From a phage, in the sequence record PV467749.1: a DNA stretch of 64,000 bases, one strand, 5' to 3'. Both the position numbers and the translations under genes were made by a program. Under the pieces are notes generated by a model that had not been told where the DNA came from, did no database searches, and saw only the letters and a program-made list of their open reading frames with translations. Of the stretch, positions 24,413 through 64,000 are shown in pieces. Numbering within the stretch: the first letter of the stretch is position 1; each line of letters begins with the position of its first letter.

Positions 24413-24413
24413 A

Positions 24414-49459: not shown

Positions 49460-49510
49460 GGTATAATCCCCAATATAAGCGGCCTGAATCGACCGCTAAC
49501 GATGTTTTGA

Positions 49511-49780: not shown

Positions 49781-49860
49781 TATACGATCCTCTTAAGTTA
49801 ATTTAATTTCTTTCCCCTATGCAGACACTATATCAAAGTATCTGCATAAAGTAAAGCTAA

Positions 49861-50184
49861 TTAAAGATCTTTTTTGCGTTTAACATTCTGTACAGTACAA
49901 TGCAACGGGATATTAAGATCATTGCACAAACGAGTAAGGGAGGTTTCATCAGTATTAAGCCCGTCTACTGATTCCTTTAAGAGAGATAACGCCGTTTGTT
50001 GATATGCATCTTCATAGCCATAAGTAAATGATTCAACCGCCAGATCATTCAAACCGTTATCCAGTTCAACGCTTACATGACAAGAATGATAAGTATTGCC
50101 ATATGAATCAGTCCAACGTTTACCGTCAACATTGATTGCACGGATTGCAGCCAGGGAAACGGTGTTAATGATAGTTTTAGCCAT
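49861..50184 (-). CDS. hypothetical protein, paralog of 43350-43673
   Basis: 107 aa; shared RWTDSYGNTYHSCHVS and TYGY motifs. Confidence 0.55.
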   Translation of the reverse strand: MAKTIINTVSLAAIRAINVDGKRWTDSYGNTYHSCHVSVELDNGLNDLAVESFTYGYEDAYQQTALSLLKESVDGLNTDETSLTRLCNDLNIPLHCTVQNVKRKKDL

Positions 50185-50273
50185 TTTTGTATTCCTTAAA
50201 TTAATATGTTGTCTTGATAAAATCTATTATGCCAGTACTATCAAACTATGTCAATAGTACTGTGATAATATTT

Positions 50274-50417
50274 TTACTTACTTTTTGCTTTCTTTGCTGC
50301 TTCCACCTGGTCGGCCCATTCTTTACCCCATACTTGTAAATTATAATGGTACTGGCAAAGAGCAACGCCCCGCTTTAAACCAGTAATAGATTTCTGACCA
50401 CATTGACAAGTTTTCAT
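50274..50417 (-). CDS. hypothetical small Cys-containing protein (below ORF-track cutoff)
   Basis: 47 aa ORF read by hand (MKTCQCGQKS...); PeSL cassette upstream. Confidence 0.4.
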   Translation of the reverse strand: MKTCQCGQKSITGLKRGVALCQYHYNLQVWGKEWADQVEAAKKAKSK

Positions 50418-50502
50418 TTTAGTTTCCTTGTAGTGGGGAGAACCATTTCTCCCCTTGATGTAATGTATTATACTTTATTCGATTTACTTTGCAAGTACTT
50501 TT

Positions 50503-50730
50503 TTAATTTAATTCATCAAGGCAAAGGATACGCTCAACGCCCAAATCAGTTAAACTAATCGACGGCACTTGATAGGTTTCAATGTATGCTACACTTGCCC
50601 ACTGACCGAACTCATTAACGGCCCAGGTATTCATTGCATTTTGCAATTCCGCACCTTCCTTGTTGGTAATGACTGCAACTACTTGTTCGTTGCCAGTAGT
50701 ACCAGATACGCGAGTAATGATAATAGCCAT
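50503..50730 (-). CDS. hypothetical small protein
   Basis: 75 aa from ATG 50728-50730; track ORF extended through promoter. Confidence 0.5.
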   Translation of the reverse strand: MAIIITRVSGTTGNEQVVAVITNKEGAELQNAMNTWAVNEFGQWASVAYIETYQVPSISLTDLGVERILCLDELN

Positions 50731-50962
50731 TGTTTTGATTCCTTTGATTTTGAAGGAGAACCGTTTCCCCCTCTCGATGTAAAACATTATACGCTAATCT
50801 CTTAATCGTGCAAGTACTTTTTATTACTTTTTGCAAAATACTTTAAACGCTCTCAATCGCGTTCTTACAGCCTTAACGCCACCAGCTAGGGCAATGCATC
50901 AGATAATCAGTTTAATGCGTTAGAATCGTTTCTAGGCGGTGCTGGTGGCCTGGTAAACGATA

Positions 50963-50994
50963 AACACAAAAAAGCCCACCGTTTAAGGTGGGCT
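50963..50994 (-). terminator. intrinsic terminator
   Basis: Hairpin AGCCCACC-gtttaa-GGTGGGCT 50973-50994, U-run on minus RNA, 3' of gene 51016-51498. Confidence 0.6.
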
Positions 50995-51015
50995 AGTGAT
51001 TCAGTACTTTAATTG

Positions 51016-51498
51016 TTATGCTTCAACTTTGCGATGAGCTTCGATCCATTCCTCGCGAGTCATACCACTGGAGTTAATCGCGTCCAGTACTACCGCAATA
51101 CAGTTACCACGCACCGGAATCAGATATTCTTCCCCGTTGTCCAGTACTACCGCTACGCGTTCCTGAATCCATTTTTTGGCTTTTACTTCTGGCTTGTCTT
51201 CCCCATACTTAACCGCCAGGGCTTTTTGTGCCATCTCTGTAACTACTTCCAGATCCAATCCAACTACTGCCGCCTGAATACTTTCGATTGTTGCTTGTAG
51301 TTCTGCTTCACGGGCCGCCTTTGCCGCTTCAATTTCTGCCGCTTTATTTGCTTGTAGTTCTTTCGCAGTACTGTACGCGATGTTAAAATTATTGCGTACC
51401 GCTTTCATGGTATCGTTATCCAGTTCAGCCAGGATCTCAGCCGCTACGTTAGTTTCATTTGCTACCAGTGCTTTGATGAATGATTTTACATTAGCCAT
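51016..51498 (-). CDS. hypothetical Ala/Glu-rich protein
   Basis: 160 aa from ATG 51496-51498 (AGGA SD); promoter TTGACA-16-TAGAAT upstream. Confidence 0.55.
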   Translation of the reverse strand: MANVKSFIKALVANETNVAAEILAELDNDTMKAVRNNFNIAYSTAKELQANKAAEIEAAKAAREAELQATIESIQAAVVGLDLEVVTEMAQKALAVKYGEDKPEVKAKKWIQERVAVVLDNGEEYLIPVRGNCIAVVLDAINSSGMTREEWIEAHRKVEA

Positions 51499-51697
51499 TT
51501 TATAAATCCTCAATTAAAGTTTAGTTTACGTTTATTAGTGTATCAAAGTTTTCTCGACGTGTCCAGTTTTTCGTTCGACTTACTGGCGGTCTACTTAGTG
51601 CTCCCCGTCTTGATGTAATACATTCTACGCTTTTCTGCGGTAATGTCAACTACTTTCTTAAAACTATTTTCAAAGTATCTCAGTACTACGATACTAC

Positions 51698-51724
51698 AAA
51701 AACAAAAAAGCCCACCAGGTGGGC
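51698..51724 (-). terminator. intrinsic terminator
   Basis: Hairpin AGCCCACC..GGTGGGCT 51708-51724 with U-run on minus RNA, 3' of gene 51732-51962. Confidence 0.55.
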
Positions 51725-51731
51725 TATGTAC

Positions 51732-51962
51732 TTAATCAGTGAGTAAAATATTAAACACTTTACCATTTAACGTTATTGGTGCACTGCTACCAGGCTCAAG
51801 ATCCGTTAATATACCTGCAATCGCTTTATCATTGGCGACCTTTCCAGTGTCCAACAGTACTACAGTACTGATAAGATTAACGCTCGTTTCAATATCATAA
51901 TGCACGGCGTTAAGTAGTTGTGTAGTACTGCTTTCGTTAAGTAAAACAATTCGCTTAGTCAT
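51732..51962 (-). CDS. hypothetical small protein
   Basis: 76 aa. Confidence 0.5.
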   Translation of the reverse strand: MTKRIVLLNESSTTQLLNAVHYDIETSVNLISTVVLLDTGKVANDKAIAGILTDLEPGSSAPITLNGKVFNILLTD

Positions 51963-51983
51963 GATGTTACCCCGTAGTATCTA

Positions 51984-52283
51984 TCAACGGCAATTAATAA
52001 CGCCGGTATGCGTTACTTTCTCAGTATCCATTACAGTGACCGAACCGCGTTTAGTACTGGCATCATAATAAATTGTTGTGCTACCGTTTTCGTCTTCTTC
52101 ATGGAACGGGCCGTTTTTAAATGCTTCCGGCTGGATCTCTAAATCCTTTAATACAATCTCGCCAGTACTTTCATCGGTCATTGCAACAGTGCACTGAATG
52201 AATTTTTCACTACTTACATCTAATGACGCATTAACAGCGAAAGAGGAAACAGATAAAGCCAGGGCGATGATTGTAATTTTCAT
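51984..52283 (-). CDS. secreted or periplasmic protein with signal peptide
   Basis: 99 aa from ATG 52281-52283; N-terminus MKITIIALALSVSSFAVNA then S. Confidence 0.5.
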   Translation of the reverse strand: MKITIIALALSVSSFAVNASLDVSSEKFIQCTVAMTDESTGEIVLKDLEIQPEAFKNGPFHEEDENGSTTIYYDASTKRGSVTVMDTEKVTHTGVINCR

Positions 52284-52389
52284 TTGATTATCCTTAGTTA
52301 CCAGGGGAACCGCTCCCCTATGCAAAACATTATACGCGTTTAAAAACTAATTGCAAGTATTTTAATAAAAAGTATTTGAAAAATAATTG

Positions 52390-52418
52390 TTGACAACTGC
52401 ATCCAGTACTGGCATAAT
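52390..52418 (+). promoter_or_regulatory. plus-strand sigma70-like promoter, antisense to gene array
   Basis: TTGACA 52390-52395, 17 bp spacer with CAGTACTG, CATAAT 52413-52418. Confidence 0.45.
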
Positions 52419-52499
52419 TACTACATCAAGACGAAACAGTCACTAACCCACCGGGTGCCGAGATCCGTCTATTAAATGATTCAGTACTGAAAAAGTAAC

Positions 52500-52518
52500 G
52501 GGGAGTTATTATCTCCCC
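52500..52518. terminator. bidirectional terminator
   Basis: Hairpin GGGGAG-ttattat-CTCCCC; U-rich on both strands; 3' of minus gene 52525-52746 and of the short plus transcript. Confidence 0.5.
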
Positions 52519-52524
52519 GCGTTG

Positions 52525-52746
52525 TTATTTTGTAAGGTATAAACAGAAGTCGCCTTTATTTGCTACGCCGCCAGTGTAACGCGATGAATAGTTAGAAACG
52601 TCCTGGACTTCTGCTATTACCAGGGTATCATCATTCAATTCGTCGCAGAAGCAAACGGCTGGATCTTGTACGCCGATTTTGTCGGCATGTTCCCGCATAG
52701 ATTTAACCAGTGCTTCCAGTTGGGAAAGAGTAGTGATATTAGCCAT
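52525..52746 (-). CDS. hypothetical small protein
   Basis: 73 aa from ATG 52744-52746; track ORF extended through promoter. Confidence 0.5.
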   Translation of the reverse strand: MANITTLSQLEALVKSMREHADKIGVQDPAVCFCDELNDDTLVIAEVQDVSNYSSRYTGGVANKGDFCLYLTK

Positions 52747-52832
52747 TTTATTTTCCTCATTACCAGGGAGAACCATTTCTCCCTTTGATGTAAACCATTA
52801 TACAGTACTGAAAACTAATTGCAAGTACTTTT

Positions 52833-53093
52833 TCAATATTGTTTGTCGTCGTCTTCCTCGATGAATTGACCGACGAAATGATCTACTTTCGCTTTGAGGC
52901 TTTTATAATCTTCTTCTACTTCCTTTAAACGTTCCTGGTAGTATTCCAATGCTTCAAGATACGCCGCCTCAGCAGTTTTTGCACGCATGGCTAAATTCAT
53001 GCCACGCGTTTCATCAAATAGCCAATAACCATCGGTGCACTGGCTAATAGATAATGTCTTGCTTAGTGCTGTATAGCTAATTACTTTACTCAT
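52833..53093 (-). CDS. hypothetical protein
   Basis: 86 aa; charged helical C-terminal half; GAGGG SD. Confidence 0.5.
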   Translation of the reverse strand: MSKVISYTALSKTLSISQCTDGYWLFDETRGMNLAMRAKTAEAAYLEALEYYQERLKEVEEDYKSLKAKVDHFVGQFIEEDDDKQY

Positions 53094-53150
53094 TAGATAA
53101 CCCTCAGTAAAGGCGGGAACTATTACCCGCCATTATCTCAGTACTGAATA

Positions 53151-53390
53151 TTACATTCCAACCATTGCAGCACGGATCGCAGTAGTGCTATATTTGAATC
53201 CGTCCGGCGTTGTAGTAGTACCGTTGGCTTTTAATCTGCGGTACATACATTCCGCAGCAATATCTTTAGTTCTACTTTGTGCGATGCAACTTTGTGCAAG
53301 CCGATACAATGACTCACCGTTATTAATCCAAAGGCTTACATTCCAATGAGTTTTGTTTTTGTGTCCGTTGTAAGTTTTAGTACTAGCCAT
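53151..53390 (-). CDS. hypothetical protein, paralog of 55196-55435
   Basis: 79 aa from ATG 53388-53390; shared HKNKTHWNVSLWINN and PDGFKYSTTAIRAAMVGM. Confidence 0.55.
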   Translation of the reverse strand: MASTKTYNGHKNKTHWNVSLWINNGESLYRLAQSCIAQSRTKDIAAECMYRRLKANGTTTTPDGFKYSTTAIRAAMVGM

Positions 53391-53480
53391 TTTTAAATCC
53401 TCGTTTGAGCGGGGAACCACTCCCCGCCTTGATGTAAAGTATTATACGCTTTTAAACTTAGTTTACAAGTACTTTTTAAA

Positions 53481-54092
53481 TTAATATTCGATTGATTCCA
53501 CTACGCCATCAATAACATTGAATTGATATTCGTTACCCTCAATCAGTGCAGTAATGTTTTCAGTAGTGAATTGATCCTCATATGCATTCTCTAAATCACG
53601 GTACAACTTACGAGATAATTCACGGATCGCATCAGTCAGTAAGTTTTCCAGGTCATCAGCAAGTGCCGCTTGTTTTACAGTTAAATCAGTGTAGCGAGTA
53701 TCAACGCAACCGCTTACCGTGTTTTCGTGTGCGTAGCGAGAGTGTGAACGTTCTACACTCATTGCCAAATCATCTTCATTCAACAAGTGACGGATTGAAC
53801 GATATTTCGTTAACGCCTTAACCTTGCGTAAAAACTTCTCAGCGTCAACGTGGTTAGTACTGATTGATGCACCGTCACCTTGCGACCAAAAACCACTGTA
53901 TTGCAATTCAGCTTCATCTATGCCGTATTCTGGTAGTACTGTTTCTTTATAGTACTCGATAACGCCCTCAGCAAAGAAATTATCCTCACATGAACGCTCA
54001 CGATCCCGAACCAGTTCGATAGCCGCCGTTTTTTGTTCTGCGTTCAGTTCAGAAAAAGCCATAACAAAAGTAGTAGTAGTGATAGTTTTCAT
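53481..54092 (-). CDS. hypothetical protein
   Basis: 203 aa; motif YSGFWSQGDGASIS; no family recognised. Confidence 0.55.
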   Translation of the reverse strand: MKTITTTTFVMAFSELNAEQKTAAIELVRDRERSCEDNFFAEGVIEYYKETVLPEYGIDEAELQYSGFWSQGDGASISTNHVDAEKFLRKVKALTKYRSIRHLLNEDDLAMSVERSHSRYAHENTVSGCVDTRYTDLTVKQAALADDLENLLTDAIRELSRKLYRDLENAYEDQFTTENITALIEGNEYQFNVIDGVVESIEY

Positions 54093-54160
54093 TTTGTAAC
54101 CCTCATTCAGTAGTTGATGTAAGTATTATACGCTTTTAAAAACATTTGTCAAACTATTTT

Positions 54161-54235
54161 ATCAGGGGAGTTTTTCGTGTGCCTTACTCCTGGGCTACTT
54201 AACGGGAAGTTACTTATTTCGTTCCCCGTCCTGAT
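54161..54235 (-). ncRNA. candidate structured RNA element between tandem promoters (copy 2)
   Basis: 75 nt duplicate of 44375-44447; inner stem CGGGAA..TTCCCG replaces CGGGG..CCCCG. Confidence 0.3.
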
Positions 54236-54316
54236 GTAAAACATTATACGCTTATTGAGATAGTTTGCAAGTACTTTTTAAAAATAGTTTTCAGTACTGA
54301 ATAGTAAAAAAAAGTA

Positions 54317-54345
54317 TTGACAGCATTATCAAGTACTGGCATAAT
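54317..54345 (+). promoter_or_regulatory. plus-strand sigma70-like promoter
   Basis: TTGACA, 17 bp spacer with AGTACTG, CATAAT; followed by the ACCCACCGGGTGC box. Confidence 0.45.
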
Positions 54346-54522
54346 ATACCCCATGACAACAGCTAACCCACCGGGTGCACAATTGTAACTATACTAAACT
54401 AATTTTTCTATAGATACACTCCCGCACCCTATGGGCTACGGCTTATCTGCCAATGAATACATTATGCCAGTACTGACAAAATAAGTCAATACCGGCAATT
54501 GTAAATTTTTCAAAAAATATGA

Positions 54523-54753
54523 TTATACTGCAATCGCGTCCAGGCTGTAATAATAATAAGTGCCGTATTGGTGTACTTTATTACCTTTTATTTCAGTACT
54601 GAATGAATCCGAACGATTTGCATATGATGTTAATTTAAAGTACTTTGATTTGCTGATACGTTGCCATACACCACAGATCCGCTGTAAGTAAGTAGTTTTA
54701 TTCGTGGTCGTATCTTTTACGGTTTTAACTTCAGTCATATACATATTAGTCAT
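54523..54753 (-). CDS. hypothetical small protein
   Basis: 76 aa; PeSL cassette upstream. Confidence 0.5.
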   Translation of the reverse strand: MTNMYMTEVKTVKDTTTNKTTYLQRICGVWQRISKSKYFKLTSYANRSDSFSTEIKGNKVHQYGTYYYYSLDAIAV

Positions 54754-54840
54754 TTTTATTACTCCAGGTTATAGGCGGGAAGAGTTCCCGCTCTCGATGT
54801 AAAACATTATACGCCTTTAAACATAGTTTGCAAGTACTTT

Positions 54841-55107
54841 TTATTCAAGTACTGCAATCTTTTTAGTACGGTACACGGTCACGCGGTTGCCCTTTCGGTC
54901 GAGCTTTATTTCTACCACTCGACGCGATACACTATCGGGACTTTTTAAGGCCGCTAACCAGTACTGTAATGATCTGGCGGTACTACGCTTTACAATGGCC
55001 CAACGTTTACCACGTTCCGATTGTACGCCCATATCTTTAAACGTTGCCCCGTCCTGGCGTGCGGCGATCCGAGCTTGTTCACGCGTCGCAAAATACTTAA
55101 TATTCAT
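54841..55107 (-). CDS. hypothetical protein, paralog of 42859-43254
   Basis: 88 aa from ATG 55105-55107. Confidence 0.55.
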   Translation of the reverse strand: MNIKYFATREQARIAARQDGATFKDMGVQSERGKRWAIVKRSTARSLQYWLAALKSPDSVSRRVVEIKLDRKGNRVTVYRTKKIAVLE

Positions 55108-55195
55108 GCTGTTGCCCTTATCGTTGGTGTATGAATAAAACACTATTATAAAGTACTATCCCCGTGCAATAGTACTTTAAATAAATTCTATTCTA

Positions 55196-55435
55196 TTACA
55201 TTCCAACCATTGCCGCACGGATCGCAGTAGTGCTATATTTGAATCCGTCCGGTGTTTTATCTTGTCCAGTCTGTTCTAAAAATAACATCATATGACGGGC
55301 CGCATCATTGCGATTAGTGCTATCGTTAATAAAGTCCTGGGCCAACCGGTATAATGATTCATCGTTATTAATCCAAAGGCTTACATTCCAATGAGTTTTG
55401 TTTTTGTGACCTAAGAACATTTTTGATTTAGCCAT
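55196..55435 (-). CDS. hypothetical protein, paralog of 53151-53390
   Basis: 79 aa from ATG 55433-55435. Confidence 0.55.
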   Translation of the reverse strand: MAKSKMFLGHKNKTHWNVSLWINNDESLYRLAQDFINDSTNRNDAARHMMLFLEQTGQDKTPDGFKYSTTAIRAAMVGM

Positions 55436-55528
55436 TTTTTTAATCCTCTTATATAGTGGGGAACTATTCCCCACCTGATGTAAAACATTATACGCTTTTA
55501 AACTTAGTTTGCAAGTACTTTATTAAAC

Positions 55529-55891
55529 TTATTTGTAAATTTTGCCACTTTCTACCCATACCAGGAAACGAGGCATATTATCCCATGCATCTTGCTTTAA
55601 GTTTAAGCCGTGCAATTCCTCAGTTGTTGCCATGCCTGGGACTGGTTTACTATACACCGAGAATTTTTCGCCCATGTACTGATAAACCATCGTCAAATCA
55701 CTGGCGATCATCTTATGGATCATCGCATCAAGCATCACGGTCGCGGCGTATTGTTCACGCTTAAGCGGCAGCATTTTAATCAGTTCGCGGTATGCGTCAA
55801 TGTGAGTTTTAACCGTTGCCGCCGGAAGATCTTTCATCTCGTCGCGGAAGTTAACCAGGTTAGCAATAATTTTGGTGATTTGAGTCGCCAT
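55529..55891 (-). CDS. hypothetical protein
   Basis: 120 aa from ATG 55889-55891; track ORF extended through promoter. Confidence 0.55.
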   Translation of the reverse strand: MATQITKIIANLVNFRDEMKDLPAATVKTHIDAYRELIKMLPLKREQYAATVMLDAMIHKMIASDLTMVYQYMGEKFSVYSKPVPGMATTEELHGLNLKQDAWDNMPRFLVWVESGKIYK

Positions 55892-56199
55892 CGTTTTAAT
55901 CTCTCTTAAAAGTGAGTTAGGAGCGTTTCCCCCGTCTCGATGTAAAACATTATACGCCTTTAAACATAGTTTACAAGTACTTTCTACAAATACTTTTAAA
56001 ATAGTTTTCTTTCTATATAGGGAAACTATCATTCAGTACTGAATCAACCAAATCACTACTACACCCCGTAAAACGGCCTCAATCGCATTCTAACGCATTA
56101 TTACACCTAAGCTATACATTTGCACCATTCTAATCATTCCAGTGCGTTACGGGCCGTTTAAACGCGTTAAATTATTTTCAATTATTTTGTTTTTAGGTA

Positions 56200-56227
56200 T
56201 TGACTCAGTACTAAAAAAGCGTATAAT
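56200..56227 (+). promoter_or_regulatory. plus-strand promoter 1 of non-coding hub
   Basis: TTGACT, 16 bp spacer with CAGTACT, TATAAT. Confidence 0.45.
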
Positions 56228-56415
56228 TACTACATAGACGCGAGAAAGCGGATACCCCAGGGGGTGCGGAATTGTGCCCAAAATTCAAGATATAAAAAAA
56301 GGATACACTCCCGCACCCTAGCAGGTAAACGCACTTTCTCAGTACTGAAATATAGTACCATAGTCCGGCCCAGGATAGCAAGCAAATTAATTAAAACTTT
56401 TTTGCTTCCAGGGTA

Positions 56416-56443
56416 TTGCTTTATTTTTTCAGTACTGTATAAT
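56416..56443 (+). promoter_or_regulatory. plus-strand promoter 2 of non-coding hub
   Basis: TTGCTT, 16 bp spacer with CAGTACTG, TATAAT. Confidence 0.4.
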
Positions 56444-56540
56444 AGTTCCATCAAGTCGAGAAAGACTCAAGCCCACCGGGTGCATAGTTACGCCCAAAAT
56501 TCAGTACTGAAAAAATTTTTAAAAATATCCGTCCAGGTCG

Positions 56541-56569
56541 TTGACATTGCCCCCAGTTTATAAGATAAT
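56541..56569 (+). promoter_or_regulatory. plus-strand promoter 3 of non-coding hub
   Basis: TTGACA, 17 bp spacer, GATAAT; faces the iteron cluster. Confidence 0.45.
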
Positions 56570-56659
56570 GATTCCAGATTCAGAAAAATCTAACACCAGA
56601 TACTGCGGGGAAACTATCCCCACGCGGTAGGGGAACTATTGGAAAAAACAAAATAAAAT

Positions 56660-56810
56660 TTTGATTTAGCCGTCTATACTTCCAGACGTGTAACCATCTA
56701 GCCGTTTAGCCGTCCAAACGTCTAGCCATCCAGCCATCCAGAAATCTAGCCGTTTAGCCGTCTAGATGGATAGCCATCTTTACTTCCAGACTTCTGGAGG
56801 GCTAGACATA
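56660..56810. repeat. iteron cluster
   Basis: Short direct repeats TAGCCGT, CCATCCAG, GGCTAGA and twice TACTTCCAGAC within about 150 bp; no ORF. Confidence 0.55.
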
Positions 56811-57180
56811 TCTACGCCCAAAATCCATCCAGGGTAACTACACCCAAAATCCGTCAGTACTATACCATAGATCTATCTTTTGAAAGGGAGTATTCAGTAC
56901 TGCCATCATAGCCCTCACTATGTTACCCTAGGAGGATGAAGACTATCATGTAGTACTGAATACTGTTAGAGGGAATCCACCAGCTTGTGCTGGTGGCATA
57001 ATGCTTTAGATTAAAATCAGTACTGACACCATTCTGTTAATATCAGTACTGTTATTACGATTTTCATATGAGGTTCAAAAAGATGTACCACCACAGGAGG
57101 AACTATCTTTTCTGTACTGTCTCACGACAGGAGGTAGAGTAAATGAATTGTTCGCAGCAACTCATCTCTCTATGTAGAAC

Positions 57181-57209
57181 ATTATACAGTACTGAATCAT
57201 AATGTCAAT
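57181..57209 (-). promoter_or_regulatory. minus-strand promoter facing into the non-coding hub
   Basis: TTGACA 57204-57209, 17 bp spacer with CAGTACTG, TATAAT 57181-57186. Confidence 0.45.
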
Positions 57210-57875
57210 AGCTTTCTTTCATTATTCAGTACTGATATTCTTGAGAACTACCCGACTACAAACATCATTATATCCCACAAATCATAAACGTCCCAACGTA
57301 AATTTCAACTTTCGAAGAACCAACTTTTATTTCATAGGTACTCCAAAATTTTTAGGATCGAGATTTAGGATGGAGTACTAACCAACTTTTTGCTGGAGCC
57401 TCAAGGGGTAATTGAATTTTACCCCGAAGGGTAAAAGGGTAATTGAAATTAAGGTGAAAGTAATAATTCAGTACTAATCATTGCGTGATTACTTTTGATT
57501 ACATTTGATGTAATTTGCAAAATGGAAAAGGAGCTTGGAAACTACAAAGTACGGCAGACTTCCTCTGCCTACTTAGTGACATATCGACACCTTCAGTACT
57601 GAATACTTTTAGGGCAGTACTGAATCCTTCCCTAGCATTCTTGAGTAATCTTGTCTATAATAATCAGTACTGAATCATATATAATCATTCTGTGATTCTA
57701 CGGTGCTCATATAAATGTTTATATATGATTACTTATGACTACATATGATTACGGGGTTTAGCCTGGGGAGAATCCTAGTGATCGCATTTGTCCAGGCTGA
57801 ATTTTAACAATTCTTCTAATTGTTAAAGCCTGTCCAATGCTTTCCCTGCGGAGCTTCCCCTGTCTATATGTTGAA

Positions 57876-58082
57876 TTACTTCCTATATATAAGCATTAAC
57901 ATATAGTAGTACTGATTATGCTGTACATTCTCTTTAATATTATAAGGGTCTATAGCAATCTCGGTACATCTGTTAAATGCATATCTATTAAATGCCAGTA
58001 CTATTATAGATCTAATCCATGCTTGGTCAGTCGGTGGTAGTTTACTTATATAGTACTCTTTATAGTTTTTTATGTTCTGCAT
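57876..58082 (-). CDS. family C small protein
   Basis: 68 aa; conserved N-terminal K-[EY]-YY-x-KL and C-terminal Y..L.LIYR. Confidence 0.5.
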   Translation of the reverse strand: MQNIKNYKEYYISKLPPTDQAWIRSIIVLAFNRYAFNRCTEIAIDPYNIKENVQHNQYYYMLMLIYRK

Positions 58083-58093
58083 AGTATACCTTA

Positions 58094-58285
58094 TTATTTC
58101 AAAGTACCATATAGTACTCTTAATAGGAAGTAGTACGTATTAGAGATATCATTAGTAGTTAAAACAATCTTAGTACACATATTAAATTCGTATTGAGTCA
58201 TTGCCAGGGGGATTAAATTGTTAACCCATGCTTGTTCGTTTTCTTTGAGTTTACTTATATAGAAATCTTTATGTTCTTTATTCAT
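58094..58285 (-). CDS. family C small protein
   Basis: 63 aa; MNKEHKDFYISKL...LLRVLYG. Confidence 0.5.
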   Translation of the reverse strand: MNKEHKDFYISKLKENEQAWVNNLIPLAMTQYEFNMCTKIVLTTNDISNTYYFLLRVLYGTLK

Positions 58286-58487
58286 ATAGGAATAGTATAC
58301 CTATGATGCCGGAGTACATATTAGTACTGTTATTATTGTCGTTTGCGTTTAAGGTCATTTGAATACAATTATTGTAGCATAATCTGCCGAAATATGTATC
58401 AGTACTTAAAGGTGCTGTAGTCCTTAGAAACATTTGTTCTGTGGGGCTGAGGTGTTTGGAGTAGAATTCTTTATGTTCTTTATTCAT
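58278..58487 (-). CDS. family C small protein
   Basis: 69 aa; MNKEHKEFYSKHL; near-copy of 58861-59067. Confidence 0.5.
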   Translation of the reverse strand: MNKEHKEFYSKHLSPTEQMFLRTTAPLSTDTYFGRLCYNNCIQMTLNANDNNNSTNMYSGIIGILFLYE

Positions 58488-58492
58488 ATTAG

Positions 58493-58678
58493 TTAGTGTC
58501 TGTATATAAGTAATAGTAAGAATACGTACTGCACCTGTTCATCTTTAGTATTGAGTACTGTACGTATTGCGTCATGGAACAAGAATATAGTACTTGGGTC
58601 ATTAGAATTTAAGGGGTTTACGGGGACGGCGTGTTTGTAGTTCCCTTTAACAAATTGTATATAGTATTCTCTATGCAT
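58493..58678 (-). CDS. family C small protein
   Basis: 61 aa; MHREYYIQF...LLLLIYRH. Confidence 0.5.
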   Translation of the reverse strand: MHREYYIQFVKGNYKHAVPVNPLNSNDPSTIFLFHDAIRTVLNTKDEQVQYVFLLLLIYRH

Positions 58679-58679
58679 A

Positions 58680-58868
58680 TCAGTACCTATATATTAGGGC
58701 GAGAATGTAGTACAGTTTATATGTATTATAATCTGGGTTGATAGCACATAGTGTGTGGTAGTGGAATTGTTTGGTATTTTTCTTATCCTTGATATCTATT
58801 GGGATTTGTGGTATAAGCATTTGGGAGTTTAGATCGAGATGGCTTAAGTAGAATTCTTTGTTATTCAT
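58680..58868 (-). CDS. family C small protein
   Basis: 62 aa; MNNKEFYLSHL...ILALIYRY. Confidence 0.5.
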   Translation of the reverse strand: MNNKEFYLSHLDLNSQMLIPQIPIDIKDKKNTKQFHYHTLCAINPDYNTYKLYYILALIYRY

Positions 58869-59067
58869 AGAAGAATATTAGTCCCATTACGCCTGAGTAT
58901 TGAATATTTTTGTTATTGTTTTCTAAAGCTTCTAGAGTAATACGTATACAATTATTAAAGCAATCTCTGGCGTGTGGTGTATCTAAACGTAAAGGTGATA
59001 CACTCCTTAGAAACATTTGTTCTGATGCACTGAGGTGTTTGGTGTAAAATTCTTTCTGTTCGTTCAT
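58861..59067 (-). CDS. family C small protein
   Basis: 68 aa; MNEQKEFYTKHL. Confidence 0.5.
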   Translation of the reverse strand: MNEQKEFYTKHLSASEQMFLRSVSPLRLDTPHARDCFNNCIRITLEALENNNKNIQYSGVMGLIFFYE

Positions 59068-59077
59068 ATTGGCCTCT

Positions 59078-59266
59078 TTAGTACACGAAAGCTAGGTACA
59101 GTACATGATACAGTACTCGATGATAGCTATCAAAATCTAGTATACATGCTTTAGTGCACATAGTAAAGTACACTTTATCGTTTTGAGCATTGATACCGCG
59201 AGGTTTATCTAATAGATTAGTACTGAGGTACATTGGGAAATATTTTGTGTAGTATTCTTTATGCAT
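59078..59266 (-). CDS. family C small protein
   Basis: About 62 aa from the internal ATG (MHKEYYTKYF); track ORF 59078-59311 is longer. Confidence 0.45.
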   Translation of the reverse strand: MHKEYYTKYFPMYLSTNLLDKPRGINAQNDKVYFTMCTKACILDFDSYHRVLYHVLYLAFVY

Positions 59267-59267
59267 A

Positions 59268-59450
59268 TTAGTACCTGAATATAAGTAGGATAGTGTTATA
59301 TAATTGGTCATAGCTACTACTATTTTCTATACTGCGTTCTATGCAATTATTGAATCCCAGTACTGCCAAATCGTTATCCAGGGGGACTTTATATCTGGCG
59401 TAGTGTTCAAATATACTGGGGAGAAATTGTGTGTAGTATTCTTTGTGCAT
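59268..59450 (-). CDS. family C small protein
   Basis: 60 aa; MHKEYYTQFL...ILLIFRY. Confidence 0.5.
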   Translation of the reverse strand: MHKEYYTQFLPSIFEHYARYKVPLDNDLAVLGFNNCIERSIENSSSYDQLYNTILLIFRY

Positions 59451-59451
59451 A

Positions 59452-59643
59452 TTAGTACTTATATATTAGTAAAAGGATGTGATACAGTACTCTATTATAG
59501 TCCTCAATATATATCGAGGATTTAGTGCACTGAATGAAGTAGTCTTTTTCGTAGTCTTTTTCTATACTCAATTGTTTTGTTGGTACAAGGTGTTGGAGAT
59601 ACATTGGGAGTTTCTCTATGTAGTATTCTTTGTGGTTATTCAT
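59452..59643 (-). CDS. family C small protein
   Basis: 63 aa; MNNHKEYYIEKL...ILLLIYKY. Confidence 0.5.
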   Translation of the reverse strand: MNNHKEYYIEKLPMYLQHLVPTKQLSIEKDYEKDYFIQCTKSSIYIEDYNRVLYHILLLIYKY

Positions 59644-59651
59644 ATTATGTG

Positions 59652-59825
59652 TTATTTCGTGAAAACAAGGGTTAGTACTGCATAGTACAAGTCATACGTA
59701 TCTTTAGGGTTAATAGCACCTTTAATACATTCTTTCATTACTTCATTATAGATAATTTTAGTACTGAATGTATTGGATGTTACTATATCGGAATTAAGGT
59801 ACGAGAGGTAGAATTCTTTATACAT
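59652..59825 (-). CDS. family C small protein
   Basis: About 57 aa from the internal ATG (MYKEFYLSYL); track ORF 59652-59888 is longer. Confidence 0.45.
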   Translation of the reverse strand: MYKEFYLSYLNSDIVTSNTFSTKIIYNEVMKECIKGAINPKDTYDLYYAVLTLVFTK

Positions 59826-60477
59826 AGTTTGAAATATACGTAATGAGGTGATGAAATTTCTTATCAGTACTGATAAGTTCCTGTACATGTTTTGTTAGTT
59901 TGTACGCGTTTTTATAGAGTCCTGGATTATCGATTACAGTACTGTACATGAATTCTTCTTCCTCGGATAATTCTTTGTGTTCTAGTTCTTTGAGGAATTG
60001 CAGTACTGTATCAGTTTCGTTAGTACGTTGCTTTTGGAAGAAGTGCATGTTATCGTGTATTTTTTCTGAACCCATGCAGTACATATCGCCGATTTGGAAT
60101 TGTGCAGTACTGATATCATGGGTGCTATTACAATTCCCGAAGAAGTATACATTCCCGAAAGATAGAATTATAGTGCACGGGATATTATCCATGTGTATAT
60201 AGATAGATGCATTCTTTAGTGCTTTTGTGCTGGTATTAGTACTCAATACTTTTAAATCAGTATTATAGATATTAATAAAAGCAAGAGCTATATTATTTTT
60301 CTTCAAGTACGATTTGAGGTTCTTAGATACGAGAACATTTCTGGATTTTTTCTTTTTATTTCGTTTCTTTAGTACACACGGGTCGTAAGTATATGCTGGT
60401 GTAAAAGATTCTGCTTGAATACTGTTGAGGTATTTAAAGTGCTTAAGGTATTGTTTGCTGTGTGCATTAAGTTTCAT
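59818..60477 (-). CDS. family A-like protein embedded in family C array
   Basis: 219 aa; motif LSEEEEFMYSTVID (FM in place of FQ). Confidence 0.5.
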   Translation of the reverse strand: MKLNAHSKQYLKHFKYLNSIQAESFTPAYTYDPCVLKKRNKKKKSRNVLVSKNLKSYLKKNNIALAFINIYNTDLKVLSTNTSTKALKNASIYIHMDNIPCTIILSFGNVYFFGNCNSTHDISTAQFQIGDMYCMGSEKIHDNMHFFQKQRTNETDTVLQFLKELEHKELSEEEEFMYSTVIDNPGLYKNAYKLTKHVQELISTDKKFHHLITYISNYV

Positions 60478-60487
60478 TTGGTTTCCT

Positions 60488-60667
60488 TTATACAGATGCG
60501 AGAGCGAGGATTTCCCTGAAGGGATTATCTTTTGTTAGTGCGTGATGAATGCAGCTATTGAGATTAATATTTTTAGTACTATTAGTTGCCAGGTTGTAGT
60601 ACTTCACGAAGGTGTCGTACATGAAACGGTCTTTAATGCTTATGTGTTCTATATAGTATTCTTGCAT
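60488..60667 (-). CDS. family C small protein (below ORF-track cutoff)
   Basis: 59 aa ORF read by hand (MQEYYIEHISIKDRF...). Confidence 0.4.
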   Translation of the reverse strand: MQEYYIEHISIKDRFMYDTFVKYYNLATNSTKNINLNSCIHHALTKDNPFREILALASV

Positions 60668-60675
60668 ATTATTCC

Positions 60676-60864
60676 TTACATAGAGATGAGTTTCAGTACA
60701 TCAATATACATATAACGTTCAGATGACAGTACACGGGTAGTGATAATCTCAATCGATATATTTTTAATTCCATGTGCAGATGATTGATGGTGCTGAATAA
60801 ATGAGTTGTGCATACTTTGTTCTATGTGGTTTAGTTTATTGAAGTAGTACTCAAAAGTGTTCAT
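60676..60864 (-). CDS. family C small protein, subgroup VLKLI
   Basis: 62 aa; MNTFEYYFNKL...YIDVLKLISM. Confidence 0.5.
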   Translation of the reverse strand: MNTFEYYFNKLNHIEQSMHNSFIQHHQSSAHGIKNISIEIITTRVLSSERYMYIDVLKLISM

Positions 60865-60871
60865 GTCTACC

Positions 60872-61051
60872 TTAGATTAAGATTAGTTTAAGTACTTCTC
60901 TGTACGTGTACTTTTCGTTTTGTGCTTCTACTGTACACGAGAGTAGATAACGTTTTTTATCTCTTTTGTTCCCGACTGTGTAGTACCTTTGGAATTTATT
61001 ATAGTTGTATCTATCTTTGTGCTGGAGGTTATAGATATAGAATTCTTGCAT
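60872..61051 (-). CDS. family C small protein, subgroup VLKLI (below ORF-track cutoff)
   Basis: 59 aa ORF read by hand (MQEFYIYNL...YTYREVLKLILI). Confidence 0.4.
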   Translation of the reverse strand: MQEFYIYNLQHKDRYNYNKFQRYYTVGNKRDKKRYLLSCTVEAQNEKYTYREVLKLILI

Positions 61052-61059
61052 AGAGTACC

Positions 61060-61245
61060 TTAGATTGCTATCAGTTTGAGTACTTCAATATATGTGCGGT
61101 ACTCTGCTTTAATTAAATTTGTACACACTGTAAGGGAATTTCTTTGTATAAGTTTATTGCCGCTTTTATACGCATTTCTCCACACATAGAGATGAGATCT
61201 TTCAGGCATAGATAGTTTATTTGTATAGTACTCAAATGTGTTCAT
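61060..61245 (-). CDS. family C small protein, subgroup VLKLI
   Basis: 61 aa; MNTFEYYTNKL...YIEVLKLIAI. Confidence 0.5.
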   Translation of the reverse strand: MNTFEYYTNKLSMPERSHLYVWRNAYKSGNKLIQRNSLTVCTNLIKAEYRTYIEVLKLIAI

Positions 61246-61253
61246 ATATTACC

Positions 61254-61436
61254 TCAAATAGAGATTAGTTTAAGTACTTCTCTGTATGTGTACTTTTCGT
61301 TTTGTGCATCTCTTGTGCTTGTATATAGGTATCCTCGACGATATTTGTTGCTCCCGTTCTTGTAGTTGAATTCGAACTTATTGTAGATGAATCTATCGCC
61401 AGGCTGTAATTTACTTAAGTACAATTCAATGTTCAT
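61254..61436 (-). CDS. family C small protein, subgroup VLKLI
   Basis: About 60 aa from the internal ATG (MNIELYLSKL...YTYREVLKLISI). Confidence 0.45.
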   Translation of the reverse strand: MNIELYLSKLQPGDRFIYNKFEFNYKNGSNKYRRGYLYTSTRDAQNEKYTYREVLKLISI

Positions 61437-61446
61437 AGTATTCTCT

Positions 61447-61632
61447 TTACATATCAATAAGTTTCAGTACTGCTCTGTACGTGTACTTAGTTGTTAGTGC
61501 TTCTTTTATAGCAATACAGAAGTAATGTTGTTTGTCTCTTATACTACCGCGTTTGTAGTACCATACATTGGAGTTGTGGGTGTACTTGTCCCTGTCGGAT
61601 AGATTTTGGTAATAGTATAATATATGATTCAT
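61447..61632 (-). CDS. family C small protein, subgroup VLKLI
   Basis: 61 aa; ...YTYRAVLKLIDM. Confidence 0.5.
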   Translation of the reverse strand: MNHILYYYQNLSDRDKYTHNSNVWYYKRGSIRDKQHYFCIAIKEALTTKYTYRAVLKLIDM

Positions 61633-61841
61633 GGTAATGTAATTAGCCTTATTATGTTAAAGTACTCGGTCCCTGGTACACCTTGTAGAATATTATCAAC
61701 TACATTTTCTTGGTGCAGGATTAATACATTCGGTGCGGTTCTTTTAAGGTTTTTTAAAGTACTGTATTCTTGTTTAAGGATGAACTGTACATCTTTAGGG
61801 AGAATATCTAAGTAGTACTGGTGTATGTTCATAGTTTTCAT
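61629..61841 (-). CDS. family C small protein
   Basis: 70 aa; MKTMNIHQYYLDIL...IIRLITLP. Confidence 0.5.
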   Translation of the reverse strand: MKTMNIHQYYLDILPKDVQFILKQEYSTLKNLKRTAPNVLILHQENVVDNILQGVPGTEYFNIIRLITLP

Positions 61842-61852
61842 ATAGTACTCTT

Positions 61853-62038
61853 TTAGAACTTAAAGATGAGGTTCATGATAGATAAGTACTTAGTTTCAGG
61901 AAATTGATGTTCTATTGCATAACGTGTCTCCAGTCTGAAGTCAAATTTATAAAAGGGACTATTCATATCCATAGGTTCATTGGGAAATGAATCTCTGTAT
62001 TGTTTGTGCAGCTTACTACAGTAGAATTCTTTATACAT
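61853..62038 (-). CDS. family C small protein
   Basis: 61 aa; MYKEFYCSKL...IMNLIFKF. Confidence 0.5.
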   Translation of the reverse strand: MYKEFYCSKLHKQYRDSFPNEPMDMNSPFYKFDFRLETRYAIEHQFPETKYLSIMNLIFKF

Positions 62039-62039
62039 A

Positions 62040-62252
62040 TTAGTGCTCGATTAAAAGGGTTAGGATGTAATAGTATTGCATACTTTCTACCCCTTGTACA
62101 GCATTTCTTATTTTATTATTCCTGTACGAGTTCAAGAGTTTAGGACAATGTTTGAAGTTTATATAATTATTTTGTGTATACAGTAGGCTTTCTCGTAGAC
62201 CTTTTGTTGGTAGTGCATCAATGTAGTACTGTTCAATGTTCATAGTGTTCAT
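62040..62252 (-). CDS. family C small protein
   Basis: 70 aa; MNTMNIEQYYIDAL...ILTLLIEH. Confidence 0.5.
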   Translation of the reverse strand: MNTMNIEQYYIDALPTKGLRESLLYTQNNYINFKHCPKLLNSYRNNKIRNAVQGVESMQYYYILTLLIEH

Positions 62253-62476
62253 AGAGCTACCAGTACTAAGATTTTTGATAATTGTTTATTGCTATCCCCG
62301 CAGATGTTGCTGTGTAAAATACTCACTACAAGGGTATCAAGTGCATTGTTCAGCATAAGGTTACATCCAGTACTGTTATGTGTTTTTAGCTCAATTAGCC
62401 ACGAACTATCCGCGAGAAACTTCGCGTACTCTAGTTCATTTAGAGTATTAATGTAGTACTTAAGTGTAGTTGTCAT
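62249..62476 (-). CDS. family C-like small protein, first gene of array
   Basis: 75 aa; MTTTLKYYINTL...ILVLVAL. Confidence 0.45.
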   Translation of the reverse strand: MTTTLKYYINTLNELEYAKFLADSSWLIELKTHNSTGCNLMLNNALDTLVVSILHSNICGDSNKQLSKILVLVAL

Positions 62477-62562
62477 GTACAGTTCTCCTTATATTCCTTA
62501 TATTCCTTCTATAGTACATCAGTACTGAAAGGTTGTCAAGGGTTTTCTTTTTGGGGTAAATA

Positions 62563-62571
62563 TGATATAAT
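62563..62571 (+). promoter_or_regulatory. extended -10 promoter
   Basis: TGaTATAAT about 15 bp upstream of AGGAGG SD and ATG 62588; no good -35 at 17 bp. Confidence 0.35.
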
Positions 62572-62587
62572 GAATAAAGGAGGAAAT

Positions 62588-63724
62588 ATGTTACCTTTTG
62601 CAAGAATGGTTAAGTACGGGAACGTAGCACCAGATAAACTAAAAATACGTGATATTGTTGCAGGTGCTAATTCATTATTACTAATAACCGAGGATAATGA
62701 ATTATGGGTGCGTGGTAATAATGCGTATGGCAAATTAGGTATAGGAACTGATACTATAGTGAATGTAACCGAGTGGACTAAAGTTAGAGATGATGTTAAG
62801 TTTGCTTGTGCTAGTAATTTAGTATGCGTTGTATTAACTGTAGATAATAAAATTTTCTACTGTGGTGATCAATGGTTTGAATCTGGTGGTTCGACAAGTT
62901 CTAAAGTTGTTACATGGAAAGATGTTACGACACAATTTAGTGCAGTGAATCTAAGCACAGTTCGTGAAATGAAAATAACTTATTATTGTGTAGGATTACT
63001 TACAAATGATAATAGATTATATGCTAAAGGATATGATAATAACCAATCATTTGGTGGTTCAACAAGCAAAGTTAATGCTGTATTAGTTGCGTCAAATGTT
63101 TCAAAATTCTACACTTCTCTATCTGGTACTATATATTCTAGTACTACTGGTGGTTACTACCGCTGTGGTATAAGCAATACTGGAGCATTGGGTACTAGCA
63201 CAAATTTAACTTCTTATAATTTGTACTCTGCTCCCGAATTTGCATCCGAATGTGCAGTTGGTATGTCAACATTAAACTCTGGTATATTATATTATGATAC
63301 TAATGGTATCACTAGATATGTTATAGCAGGTCAAAATAGAAATTATCAACTAGGTAATTCTTCTTCAAATACCACAAACGTATATTCGTATACAGAATTA
63401 ACCGGATATAGAGGCAGGTTTAGGGATTTGTGGAGTGATATGAATAACTCTGTTCTTTCTTTTGCTATAAGCACAGATGGCAATACTTTATATTATGCTG
63501 GTACTAACAATACACTATCTTCTGGTGATCCTGGTGTTGAATATTCATCTGCATTTAAAGAAGTACCACACGGGTTTAATGATATAACAAAGGTGGTATC
63601 GTTAGCCTATCTATCTATAGTGCAAGATTCAACTGGATGGTATTATTCTGGAAATGCAACTACGTTATATGGTTTGCCATCGAGTGATGAATTTATACCA
63701 TTACCATTACCAACAATAATTTAA
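62588..63724 (+). CDS. RCC1-like repeat protein
   Basis: 378 aa from ATG after AGGAGG SD; repeats such as VRGNNAYGKLGIG and YAKGYDNNQSFGG. Confidence 0.5.
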   Translation: MLPFARMVKYGNVAPDKLKIRDIVAGANSLLLITEDNELWVRGNNAYGKLGIGTDTIVNVTEWTKVRDDVKFACASNLVCVVLTVDNKIFYCGDQWFESGGSTSSKVVTWKDVTTQFSAVNLSTVREMKITYYCVGLLTNDNRLYAKGYDNNQSFGGSTSKVNAVLVASNVSKFYTSLSGTIYSSTTGGYYRCGISNTGALGTSTNLTSYNLYSAPEFASECAVGMSTLNSGILYYDTNGITRYVIAGQNRNYQLGNSSSNTTNVYSYTELTGYRGRFRDLWSDMNNSVLSFAISTDGNTLYYAGTNNTLSSGDPGVEYSSAFKEVPHGFNDITKVVSLAYLSIVQDSTGWYYSGNATTLYGLPSSDEFIPLPLPTII

Positions 63725-63730
63725 ATACAG

Positions 63731-63757
63731 GCCAGTACTTGATACTGGCTTTTTTTG
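63731..63757 (+). terminator. intrinsic terminator
   Basis: Hairpin GCCAGTA-cttga-TACTGGC 63731-63749 followed by T7. Confidence 0.6.
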
Positions 63758-63790
63758 ATTAAATATAGTATAATGAATAAGGGAGGGAAT

Positions 63791-64000
63791 ATGTTACCTT
63801 TTGTAAGAATGTTTGATTATGGAAATGAAGCTCCTACCAACTCTGGTCGTTATAAAATATATTCCAGTGATTCTATGTATCTTCATGATACTTATACTGA
63901 CAAGTTGTATGCATCTTCTGCGACGAATTGGGGTACTGGTACAGGTGTAGCATCGAGTAAATTTATTCTTTGTGCGGAGAATGTTAAACGAGTTCTATTG
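63791..64000 (+). CDS. paralog of RCC1-like repeat protein, 3' end outside window
   Basis: Starts MLPFVRMFDYGN, same N-terminus as 62588-63724; GGGAGG SD; ORF open to window end. Confidence 0.45.
   Translation, partial: MLPFVRMFDYGNEAPTNSGRYKIYSSDSMYLHDTYTDKLYASSATNWGTGTGVASSKFILCAENVKRVLL

Follow-up and report, generated by a model that had tools for sequence, protein, structure and literature searches.

The DNA analyzed here is a stretch of 64,000 nucleotides (nt) from the phage sequence record PV467749.1, in the following called the window, and we focused on a dense block of small genes within it, designated array C: Between positions 57876 and 62476 lie 21 minus-strand genes, 20 of which encode proteins of 57-75 amino acids (aa) and one a protein of 219 aa (Table 1). 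Judged by sequence, the window stems from an Asteriusvirus jumbo coliphage of the 121Q/PBECO4/G17 type. A megablast search with positions 57000-64000 returned Escherichia phage WPEC5 as the best match (98.6% identity) and matched 37 phage records, all of them Escherichia or Salmonella jumbo phages of the Asteriusvirus type (121Q, PBECO4, G17, phAPEC6). In the records of these relatives, the only annotation of the array C region is "hypothetical protein".

All 21 open reading frames (ORFs) were recovered exactly where an initial annotation of the window had placed them, including two genuine 59-aa members (C12 and C14) and the 219-aa gene with its EEEEFMYST motif (C11). ORFs of at least 57 aa span 4578 of the 4601 nt of the array; in 300 dinucleotide-preserving shuffles, by comparison, the mean number of such ORFs was 0.63 and the maximum three. 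Three ORFs (C07, C10 and C16) are over-extended, and the probable internal ATG starts given for them in Table 1 follow the WPEC5 annotation. With these corrected starts, the gene-to-gene distances are 11, -8, 5, 1, -8, 10, 1, 1, 8, -8, 10, 8, 7, 8, 8, 10, -4, 11, 1 and -4 nt. The expectation that ORFs of less than 60 aa would fill every gap was thereby borne out, as all distances range from -8 to +11 nt and none is left unfilled.

Table 1. Genes of array C and associated features, listed in the predicted direction of transcription (LOO, leave-one-out hidden Markov model; positions refer to the window).
Feature	Position	Strand	Length	Subgroup	Remarks
Predicted sigma70-like promoter of array C	62511-62539	-			TTGACA, 17-nt spacer with CAGTACTG, TACTAT; A-rich stretch upstream
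C21	62249-62476	-	75 aa		First gene of the predicted operon; doubtful family member (LOO E=1.8); conserved in relatives
C20	62040-62252	-	70 aa	g3	Pairs with C18 (E=1e-9); LOO E=1.6e-5
C19	61853-62038	-	61 aa	g1	phrog_11711 E=2e-15; LOO E=1.1e-8
C18	61629-61841	-	70 aa	g3	LOO E=1e-4
C17	61447-61632	-	61 aa	g2	BLASTP and HMM; dN/dS versus G17 0.18
C16	61254-61436	-	60 aa	g2	Start corrected to MNIELY; BLASTP and LOO
C15	61060-61245	-	61 aa	g2	Best cross-subgroup link: g1 HMM E=8.7e-4; leave-g2-out E=2.5e-5
C14	60872-61051	-	59 aa	g2	BLASTP and LOO
C13	60676-60864	-	62 aa	g2	BLASTP and LOO
C12	60488-60667	-	59 aa	g2	BLASTP and LOO
C11	59818-60477	-	219 aa		Not family C; phrog_29152; array-A signature LSEEEEFMYSTV at residues 170-181
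C10	59652-59825	-	57 aa	g1	Start corrected to MYKEFY; BLASTP and LOO
C09	59452-59643	-	63 aa	g1	Modeled protein; phrog_11711 E=4e-24; AlphaFold2 pLDDT 90, four helices
C08	59268-59450	-	60 aa	g1	dN/dS 0.02 (8-9 synonymous versus 1 non-synonymous change)
C07	59078-59266	-	62 aa	g1	Start corrected to MHKEYY; BLASTP; dN/dS 0.13
C06	58861-59067	-	68 aa	g1	58% identity with C03 (E=8e-29)
C05	58680-58868	-	62 aa	g1	BLASTP and LOO
C04	58493-58678	-	61 aa	g1	BLASTP and LOO
C03	58278-58487	-	69 aa	g1	BLASTP and LOO
C02	58094-58285	-	63 aa	g1	BLASTP and LOO
C01	57876-58082	-	68 aa	g1	Last gene of the predicted operon; phrog_11711 E=3e-19; dN/dS about 1.0
Structured non-coding spacer between array C and repeat	57574-57875	-	302 nt		Three CAGTACTG copies; RNA fold z-score -7.5
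Genome terminus and terminal-repeat edge	57553-57573	-			fEgEco12 base 1 = 57573; GGCAGA..TCTGCC hairpin at end

Paralogy, Subgroups and Predicted Fold

The small genes of array C are paralogues: Pairwise BLASTP joins many of their products (C03-C06, E=8e-29; C14-C16, E=2e-17; C01-C02, E=1e-15), and hidden Markov models (HMMs) from which one member at a time was left out recovered 19 of the 20 small proteins at E <= 1e-4. The tandem array of paralogues proposed in the initial annotation is thus upheld, with 19 genes forming one family (family C) instead of the 20 counted there, as membership of C21 was not supported (E=1.8). Where two subgroups had been recognized, BLASTP, hhalign and HMM comparisons resolve three, namely g1 (n=11: C01-C10 and C19), g2 (n=6: C12-C17) and g3 (C18 and C20). 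By hhalign, g1 aligns with g2 over the full length (E=7e-5, 54 columns) and with g3 over 51 columns (E=1.3e-3), and the g2-g3 alignment is confined to the N-terminus. When whole subgroups were left out, the omitted members took ranks 1-8 among about 433 window ORFs. Homology of g1, g2 and g3 within a single superfamily, whose subgroups are joined only at the profile level, can accordingly be proposed with moderate confidence. The mean column identity of the array C alignment is 28%, and no family C members were found elsewhere in the window.

All 11 g1 members match phrog_11711, a family of unknown function with 62 positions, over the full length (E 3e-12 to 4e-24; C01, C06, C09 and C19 cover positions 1-62 at E 3e-19 to 4e-24). 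Subgroup g1 is hence the same family as phrog_11711, and its orthologues are already deposited in GenBank as "hypothetical proteins" in the records of 121Q, PBECO4, G17, WPEC5 and their relatives. The remaining proteins g2, g3 and C21, in contrast, lie outside PHROG (for C14, C15, C20 and C21, no PHROG family was found at E<=0.01), and many phage records leave family C genes unannotated. The wider link between g1, g2 and g3, as it emerges from the profile comparisons, is drawn in this analysis only.

Tyr (10.2%), Asn (9%), His and Leu are abundant in family C proteins, whereas Gly, Asp, Glu, Ala and Val are scarce. Their isoelectric points (pI) range from 5.5 to 9.6, subgroup g2 being basic (pI 9.4-9.6). 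Conserved are an N-terminal KE[YF]YxxxL, a central FxxC[TI] and a C-terminal YxxLxLIxxx motif. An AlphaFold2 model of C09, based on a family alignment of 38 sequences, reached a predicted local distance difference test score (pLDDT) of 90 and a predicted template modeling score of 0.73, with helices at residues 3-10, 14-17, 30-45 and 49-62; family C is therefore confidently predicted to fold into four helices. We also considered the hydrophobic C-terminus as a membrane anchor and rejected this idea, as the segment comprises just about 10-14 residues and is modeled as a packed helix of the bundle.

Library searches with the array C products yielded no relatives of assigned function. None of the 21 products had a significant Pfam match: The small proteins gave single-member matches at chance level (best E=0.0072) and C11 remained sub-threshold. 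PADLOC returned nothing significant and the PDB sequence profiles just a designed protein (E=0.013); the best single-member, chance-level matches in the Pfam, PADLOC and PDB sequence searches together fell at E=0.0027-0.013. No solved structure was matched by sequence or by fold, and BFVD contained no match outside family C itself. Traits of anti-CRISPR-type anti-defense genes, that is, a helix-turn-helix Aca regulator or similarity to known inhibitors, did not turn up in the library searches either.

Distribution, Selection and Turnover

A word-indexed search of 5.8 billion proteins returned 42 family C matches, and an exhaustive HMMER scan of 1.84 billion representatives of 50% identity clusters returned 32 clusters only, all with proteins of 59-75 aa. 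By tblastn against 50,697 phage records, family C was detected in 36 (32 Escherichia and 4 Salmonella phages), all belonging to Asteriusvirus. No members were found in more distant relatives, the DNA polymerase genes of which are 75-77% identical, including CBB, GAP32, Serratia BF and Erwinia and Yersinia phages; at the equivalent junction of CBB, beta-propeller structural genes are followed directly by the terminal repeat, and a small-gene array is absent. As family C was confined to Asteriusvirus in these searches, we consider it genus-specific.

Within the genus, the small genes evolve fast. Their pooled ratio of non-synonymous to synonymous polymorphism (pN/pS) is 0.44-0.46 in comparisons with G17, phAPEC6 and SP27, with single genes ranging from 0.02 (C08) to about 1.0 (C01); the neighboring repeat genes show 0.20-0.26 in the same comparisons, about half the value of array C. 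The array stays in place among the relatives, but the number of its family members varies, from 20 in WPEC5 and fEgEco12 to 19 in SP27, 18 in phAPEC6, 17 in both G17 and PBECO4, and 14 in JNE01, and some array genes are swapped among relatives for alleles that are 35-64% identical. C12-C16 of SP27 are 98-100% identical to those of the window, yet the DNA polymerase gene is 86% identical, which points to mosaic exchange. JNE01 shows 30-57% identity for the array proteins, 83-100% for the adjacent repeat proteins and 83.8% for the DNA polymerase gene (nucleotide level). Even there, the order g3, g2, 219-aa gene, g1 is preserved, and we therefore regard the array as old and its contents as subject to turnover.

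Signs of unit duplication and local homogenization are visible in the array itself. Repeats are spaced by about 190, 383 and 585 nt. Several paralogue pairs show locally elevated nucleotide identity at their 5' end, their 3' end or both, C14/C16 for example with 86-90% in the 3' part as compared with 68% overall. Moreover, three g1 junctions share the sequence GTACTRATATG, in which a tyrosine codon with the stop codon, a Shine-Dalgarno-like element and the start codon of the following gene are combined.

Position at the Genome Terminus and Predicted Transcription

The location of array C relative to the genome end was deduced from phage fEgEco12, the direct terminal repeat (DTR) of which measures 20,993 bp and was identified by PhageTerm with restriction digests as confirmation (PMC13070987). 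Base 1 of fEgEco12 corresponds to window position 57573, from where its sequence runs downward (blastn of fEgEco12 1-1498 versus 57573-56084, 97.2% identity over 1498 nt). The terminal repeat consequently occupies ~37.1-57.6 kb of the window (~20.5 kb; GC content 0.37-0.40), with its inner edge at ~37100. Since the last stop codon of array C lies at 57876, the array ends 303 bp short of the genome terminus, and none of its genes are located inside the DTR.

The promoter listed in Table 1 is the only good one for array C, and the 5' untranslated region (5' UTR) contains a repeated Shine-Dalgarno-like element, AAGGAATAT. Terminator-like sites were not found within the array, and internal promoter-like sites were not in excess over shuffles. 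Going by these signals, array C is one operon with a single upstream promoter. On the same strand, the terminal repeat contains 37 sigma70-like cassettes, 34 of which include the hexamer AGTACT, which directly precedes the -10 element (CAGTACTG-TATAAT) or adjoins the -35 element (AGTAC-TTGCAA). Because of this common AGTACT-bearing design, the predicted promoter of array C is grouped with those of the repeat genes in one class. Within the repeat (37100-57573), nearly each gene has its own cassette, consisting of a promoter with embedded AGTACT, a conserved transcribed GTTTTACATC, a 5'-UTR hairpin (GGGGAGA...TCTCCCC) and a Shine-Dalgarno sequence; these repeated cassettes also give rise to a spurious seven-member plus-strand ORF family at 40727-55764.

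AGTACT is not restricted to promoters: The window contains 274 copies versus 19 expected (about 14-fold), and 63 copies of CAGTACTG versus 0.9. The hexamer is found in each of the three codon phases as well as in intergenic DNA, its consensus with flanks being tCAGTACTGa, and reaches the highest density of the window, 8.0 per kb, in array C. Its excess is genome-wide, as 107 copies versus 15 expected were counted in a core 50-kb region (WPEC5 150-200 kb), and it extends to the distant relative CBB (343-358 kb), where 61 copies versus 5 are clustered at the repeat edge. Its possible roles include binding of a regulator, a part in promoters and DNA modification; in the literature searched, we found no description of the motif. 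Two zones, 21601-29600 (part of array A, see below) and 31751-37100 (all of array B), contain zero AGTACT, with 3.7-8 copies per kb in their flanks, which suggests that these blocks are either recent acquisitions or the product of a recent expansion that started from a founder gene without the motif.

This enrichment raises the question of how far the DNA motif shapes the proteins. In array C, 80 TAC codons compare with 50 TAT codons, and 36 of the TAC codons follow G. AGTACT does contribute to this codon bias and to the xYY and xVL positions, some conserved instances of which coincide with it, and part of the tyrosine richness of family C may thus serve a DNA signal. The possibility that the shared protein motifs are a mere by-product of AGTACT was nevertheless rejected as the main explanation, as most N-termini (KEYY, KEFY) are free of the hexamer and its position differs among paralogues.

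The 219-aa Gene and Arrays A and B

The protein C11, encoded in the middle of array C, belongs to phrog_29152 (unknown function), with close orthologues only. Its most conserved stretch is FLKELxxKELSEEExFMYSTVIDNPxLYKNAY. The signature LSEEEEFMYSTV is invariant in 19 orthologues and situated about 45 residues from the C-terminus; the JNE01 orthologue carries SEDEMFQWSTII. C11 conforms to the signature [ST]xEEx[FYL]F[QM]xS[TL][VI] of array A, a tandem array of about 40 proteins of ~100-210 aa at 3331-31067, in which at least 27 proteins carry [ST]xEEx[FYL]FQxS[TL][VI] and about 40 are recognized by profile. As in C11, the array-A signature stands at a similar distance from the C-terminus.

How much of the "family-A-like" character ascribed to C11 in the initial annotation holds depends on the length compared. 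The signature region aligns with array A by profile-profile comparison (E=5.4e-6, probability 86%) over 18 columns only, whereas similarity of the whole protein is not significant (phmmer best E=0.087; array-A HMM E=1.8, domain E=0.096); the JNE01 orthologue reaches a domain E of 0.0023 with the array-A HMM. An AlphaFold2 model of C11 from 19 orthologues was unusable (pLDDT 38). A gene of ~220 aa occupies the same spot within the array in every relative examined, including JNE01 (39% identical), so that its presence in the array must be old; the exchange between arrays that had been suggested is, at least as a recent event, unsupported.

The small family C proteins, unlike C11, are devoid of the array-A signature, and homology to the array-A profile (E>=1) as well as to family B (hhalign probability 0.7%) was rejected. 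As observations in their own right, the array-A signature EEx[YFL]FQxS[TL][VI], found for example as EEMYFQGS, EEGYFQGS and EEYYFQNS, resembles the tobacco etch virus/3C protease site ENLYFQ(S/G) and may be a cleavage site or a structural motif, and array B (30154-37005) is made up of 27 paralogues, 63-91 aa in length, in which the motif LGTNYQE looks invariant.

Flanking Regions

The minus strand holds 160 of the 178 chosen ORFs of the window. Array B begins directly beyond the inner edge of the repeat, and arrays B and C and the repeat all have the same orientation. The other flank of array C is formed by divergently transcribed RCC1-like genes: At 62570-64000 and in the relatives, there are 4-8 tandem RCC1-like beta-propeller paralogues, annotated as "DNA condensation protein" or "chromosome condensation regulator". 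They are strongly diverged between lineages (29-46% identity in JNE01), and in CBB kelch-like propellers stand in their place. Two of these flanking proteins, gp549 and gp551, are contained in the virion proteome of phAPEC6.

Around the terminus at 57573, ~1.4 kb of DNA is non-coding (56.5-57.9 kb, within 56084-57875) and contains many CAGTACTG copies, an 8-bp tandem repeat of the CGTCTAGC/CATCCAGC type at 56671-56822 and a hairpin exactly at the terminus. This region is likely the site of terminase recognition or end formation. In the region 58000-64000, the GC skew flips from negative to ~+0.2 near 58 kb, although the array C genes remain on the minus strand, a switch that fits the unusual composition of family C. 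No Rfam match was obtained over the whole window, and no tRNA genes were found.

Interpretation and Alternative Explanations

Our favored interpretation, to which we give roughly an even chance, is that array C constitutes an early operon encoding diversifying small binding proteins for host takeover, anti-defense or host range. That the products are real proteins is indicated by the pooled pN/pS, by the values of 0.02-0.2 for single genes and by the pLDDT of the C09 model. Host RNA polymerase most likely transcribes the array from the single sigma70-type promoter with the AGTACT design common to the DTR genes. Early timing is suggested by this promoter class together with two analogies: The DTR genes of the related jumbo phage PA5oct are early and highly transcribed (PMC7318152), and in CBB a short-ORF region beside the repeat, equipped with RpoD-type promoters, was proposed to contain early host-takeover genes (PMC5259590). 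Translational coupling of the genes is probable, given gaps of no more than 11 nt and the frequent contact or overlap of stop and start codons. The products are most likely small binding or inhibitor proteins directed against host targets that vary between strains, with the conserved N- and C-terminal helices as a scaffold and the variable middle, at about residues 14-29, setting specificity. The repertoire would turn over by duplication of one- to three-gene units, divergence and recombinational exchange between phages.

Several points weigh against this interpretation. Array C members are known here from sequence and predicted structure alone, and a pN/pS of 0.45 fits relaxed constraint equally well as diversifying selection. 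The promoter is a consensus match only, with a -10 element (TACTAT) weaker than those of the repeat, and because the array lies just outside the terminal repeat, the analogy to PA5oct is indirect. In addition, the tyrosine richness and TAC bias are entangled with the GTAC/AGTACT enrichment, so that the shared protein pattern could be partly driven by DNA. Finally, virion mass spectrometry, by which none of the array C products was detected in the phAPEC6 virion proteome, often misses small proteins.

According to the first alternative, array C is nearly neutral genome filler whose duplicates are kept because a larger capsid needs filling (ratchet idea, Hua et al. 2017). Tandem duplication was proposed by these authors as a route of jumbo genome expansion, with mention of an array in 121Q (PMC5646251), and the idea was repeated by the authors of the phAPEC6 study (PMC7247149); the elevated pN/pS of about 0.45, the value near 1.0 for C01 and the variable membership would be in keeping with it. 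However, several members are under strong purifying selection (C08, C07 and C17 in Table 1), and even the divergent JNE01 lineage has retained the array with its order of subgroups. Filler would also hardly be expected to have a dedicated predicted promoter, to keep its Shine-Dalgarno and stop-start junctions and to conserve a confidently predicted fold. We thus judge this explanation unlikely.

Decidedly unlikely, in our estimation, is a role of family C at the DNA end or in the particle, where its proteins would be packaged or injected, or would bind DNA (e.g., the AGTACT palindrome) in order to package it, protect its ends or condense it. Several features speak for such a role: The array abuts the genome terminus, its neighbors are the virion-associated RCC1-like "DNA condensation" genes, its AGTACT density is the top value of the window and the g2 proteins are basic. 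Very unlikely is, in turn, that the small proteins are subunits of one hetero-oligomeric complex, formed with each other or with the 219-aa protein, and not independent effectors. The predicted co-transcription and tight coupling of all genes, the hydrophobic C-terminal helix common to the small proteins and the fixed position of the 219-aa gene across all relatives examined would suit a complex, but free gain, loss and replacement among close relatives would be unusual for obligate subunits. Lastly, the notion that the ORFs are not genes and merely arise from AT-rich repeats or from AGTACT, which like GTAC shows a strong excess and in some members coincides with conserved xYY and xVL positions, is effectively refuted by selection (pN/pS below 1, down to 0.02) and ORF statistics (21 versus 0.63 in shuffles), with the mostly AGTACT-free N-termini, the well-scored AlphaFold2 model and the conservation of ORF lengths across the genus also standing against it.

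Relation to Known Systems and Significance

Tandem arrays have been reported for 121Q and phage G (Hua et al. 2017, PMC5646251) and for phAPEC6 (PMC7247149), that is, for the same phage group and with the same expansion by tandem duplication; array C is smaller, far more diverged and not described there. As such arrays in 121Q-type phages have already been mentioned and g1 is already a PHROG, array C is not a new kind of system. It is, however, uncharacterized and its protein family has never been studied: In the literature searched, we found nothing specific on Asteriusvirus transcriptomics or on array C.

With the DTR genes of PA5oct and the proposed early region of CBB, array C has in common that many small genes of unknown function lie at or next to a long DTR and are preceded by strong sigma70-type promoters, although CBB has no equivalent array at this junction. 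The pre-early genes of T5 and the host-takeover module of SPO1 are further early or host-takeover gene sets of terminal repeats. Array C carries the sigma70-type early promoter of such a module, as a sequence match only, and differs from these sets in being located outside the repeat, in being predicted to form one polycistronic operon in place of one promoter per gene and in being made of paralogues.

Terminal multigene families are also known from large eukaryotic DNA viruses, namely the MGF100/110/360/505 families of African swine fever virus (ASFV) and the variable ends and gene "accordions" of poxviruses. Like array C, they consist of tandem paralogues by the termini with strain-variable content and fast divergence, and a role in host range or immune evasion is presumed for them. 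Array C likewise presents tandem paralogues beside a genome terminus with content varying between strains, but it belongs to a bacterial virus, its proteins are much smaller and there is no sequence or fold relationship, so that the analogy is one of organization only. We tentatively extend it to a possible, if rather doubtful, proposal: Array C might be the phage counterpart of these families, in which an orphan four-helix scaffold has been multiplied, swapped among phages and varied in its central segment at the junction of unique sequence and repeat, giving each strain its own early inhibitors of variable host defenses or surface-exclusion systems, co-regulated with the repeat genes via the clade-wide CAGTACTG element.

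Jumbo phages of this group are under development for therapy, and about 80% of their genes are without known function. The fold of family C is predicted with confidence, neither PDB nor viral structure libraries yielded a match to it, and the AGTACT-bearing predicted promoter common to array C and the repeat genes points to an undescribed regulatory signal. With one predicted promoter, about 20 related proteins and natural presence/absence variation over 36 sequenced relatives, array C is tractable, and it represents a compact, clearly bounded candidate for strain-specific determinants of host range or anti-defense.

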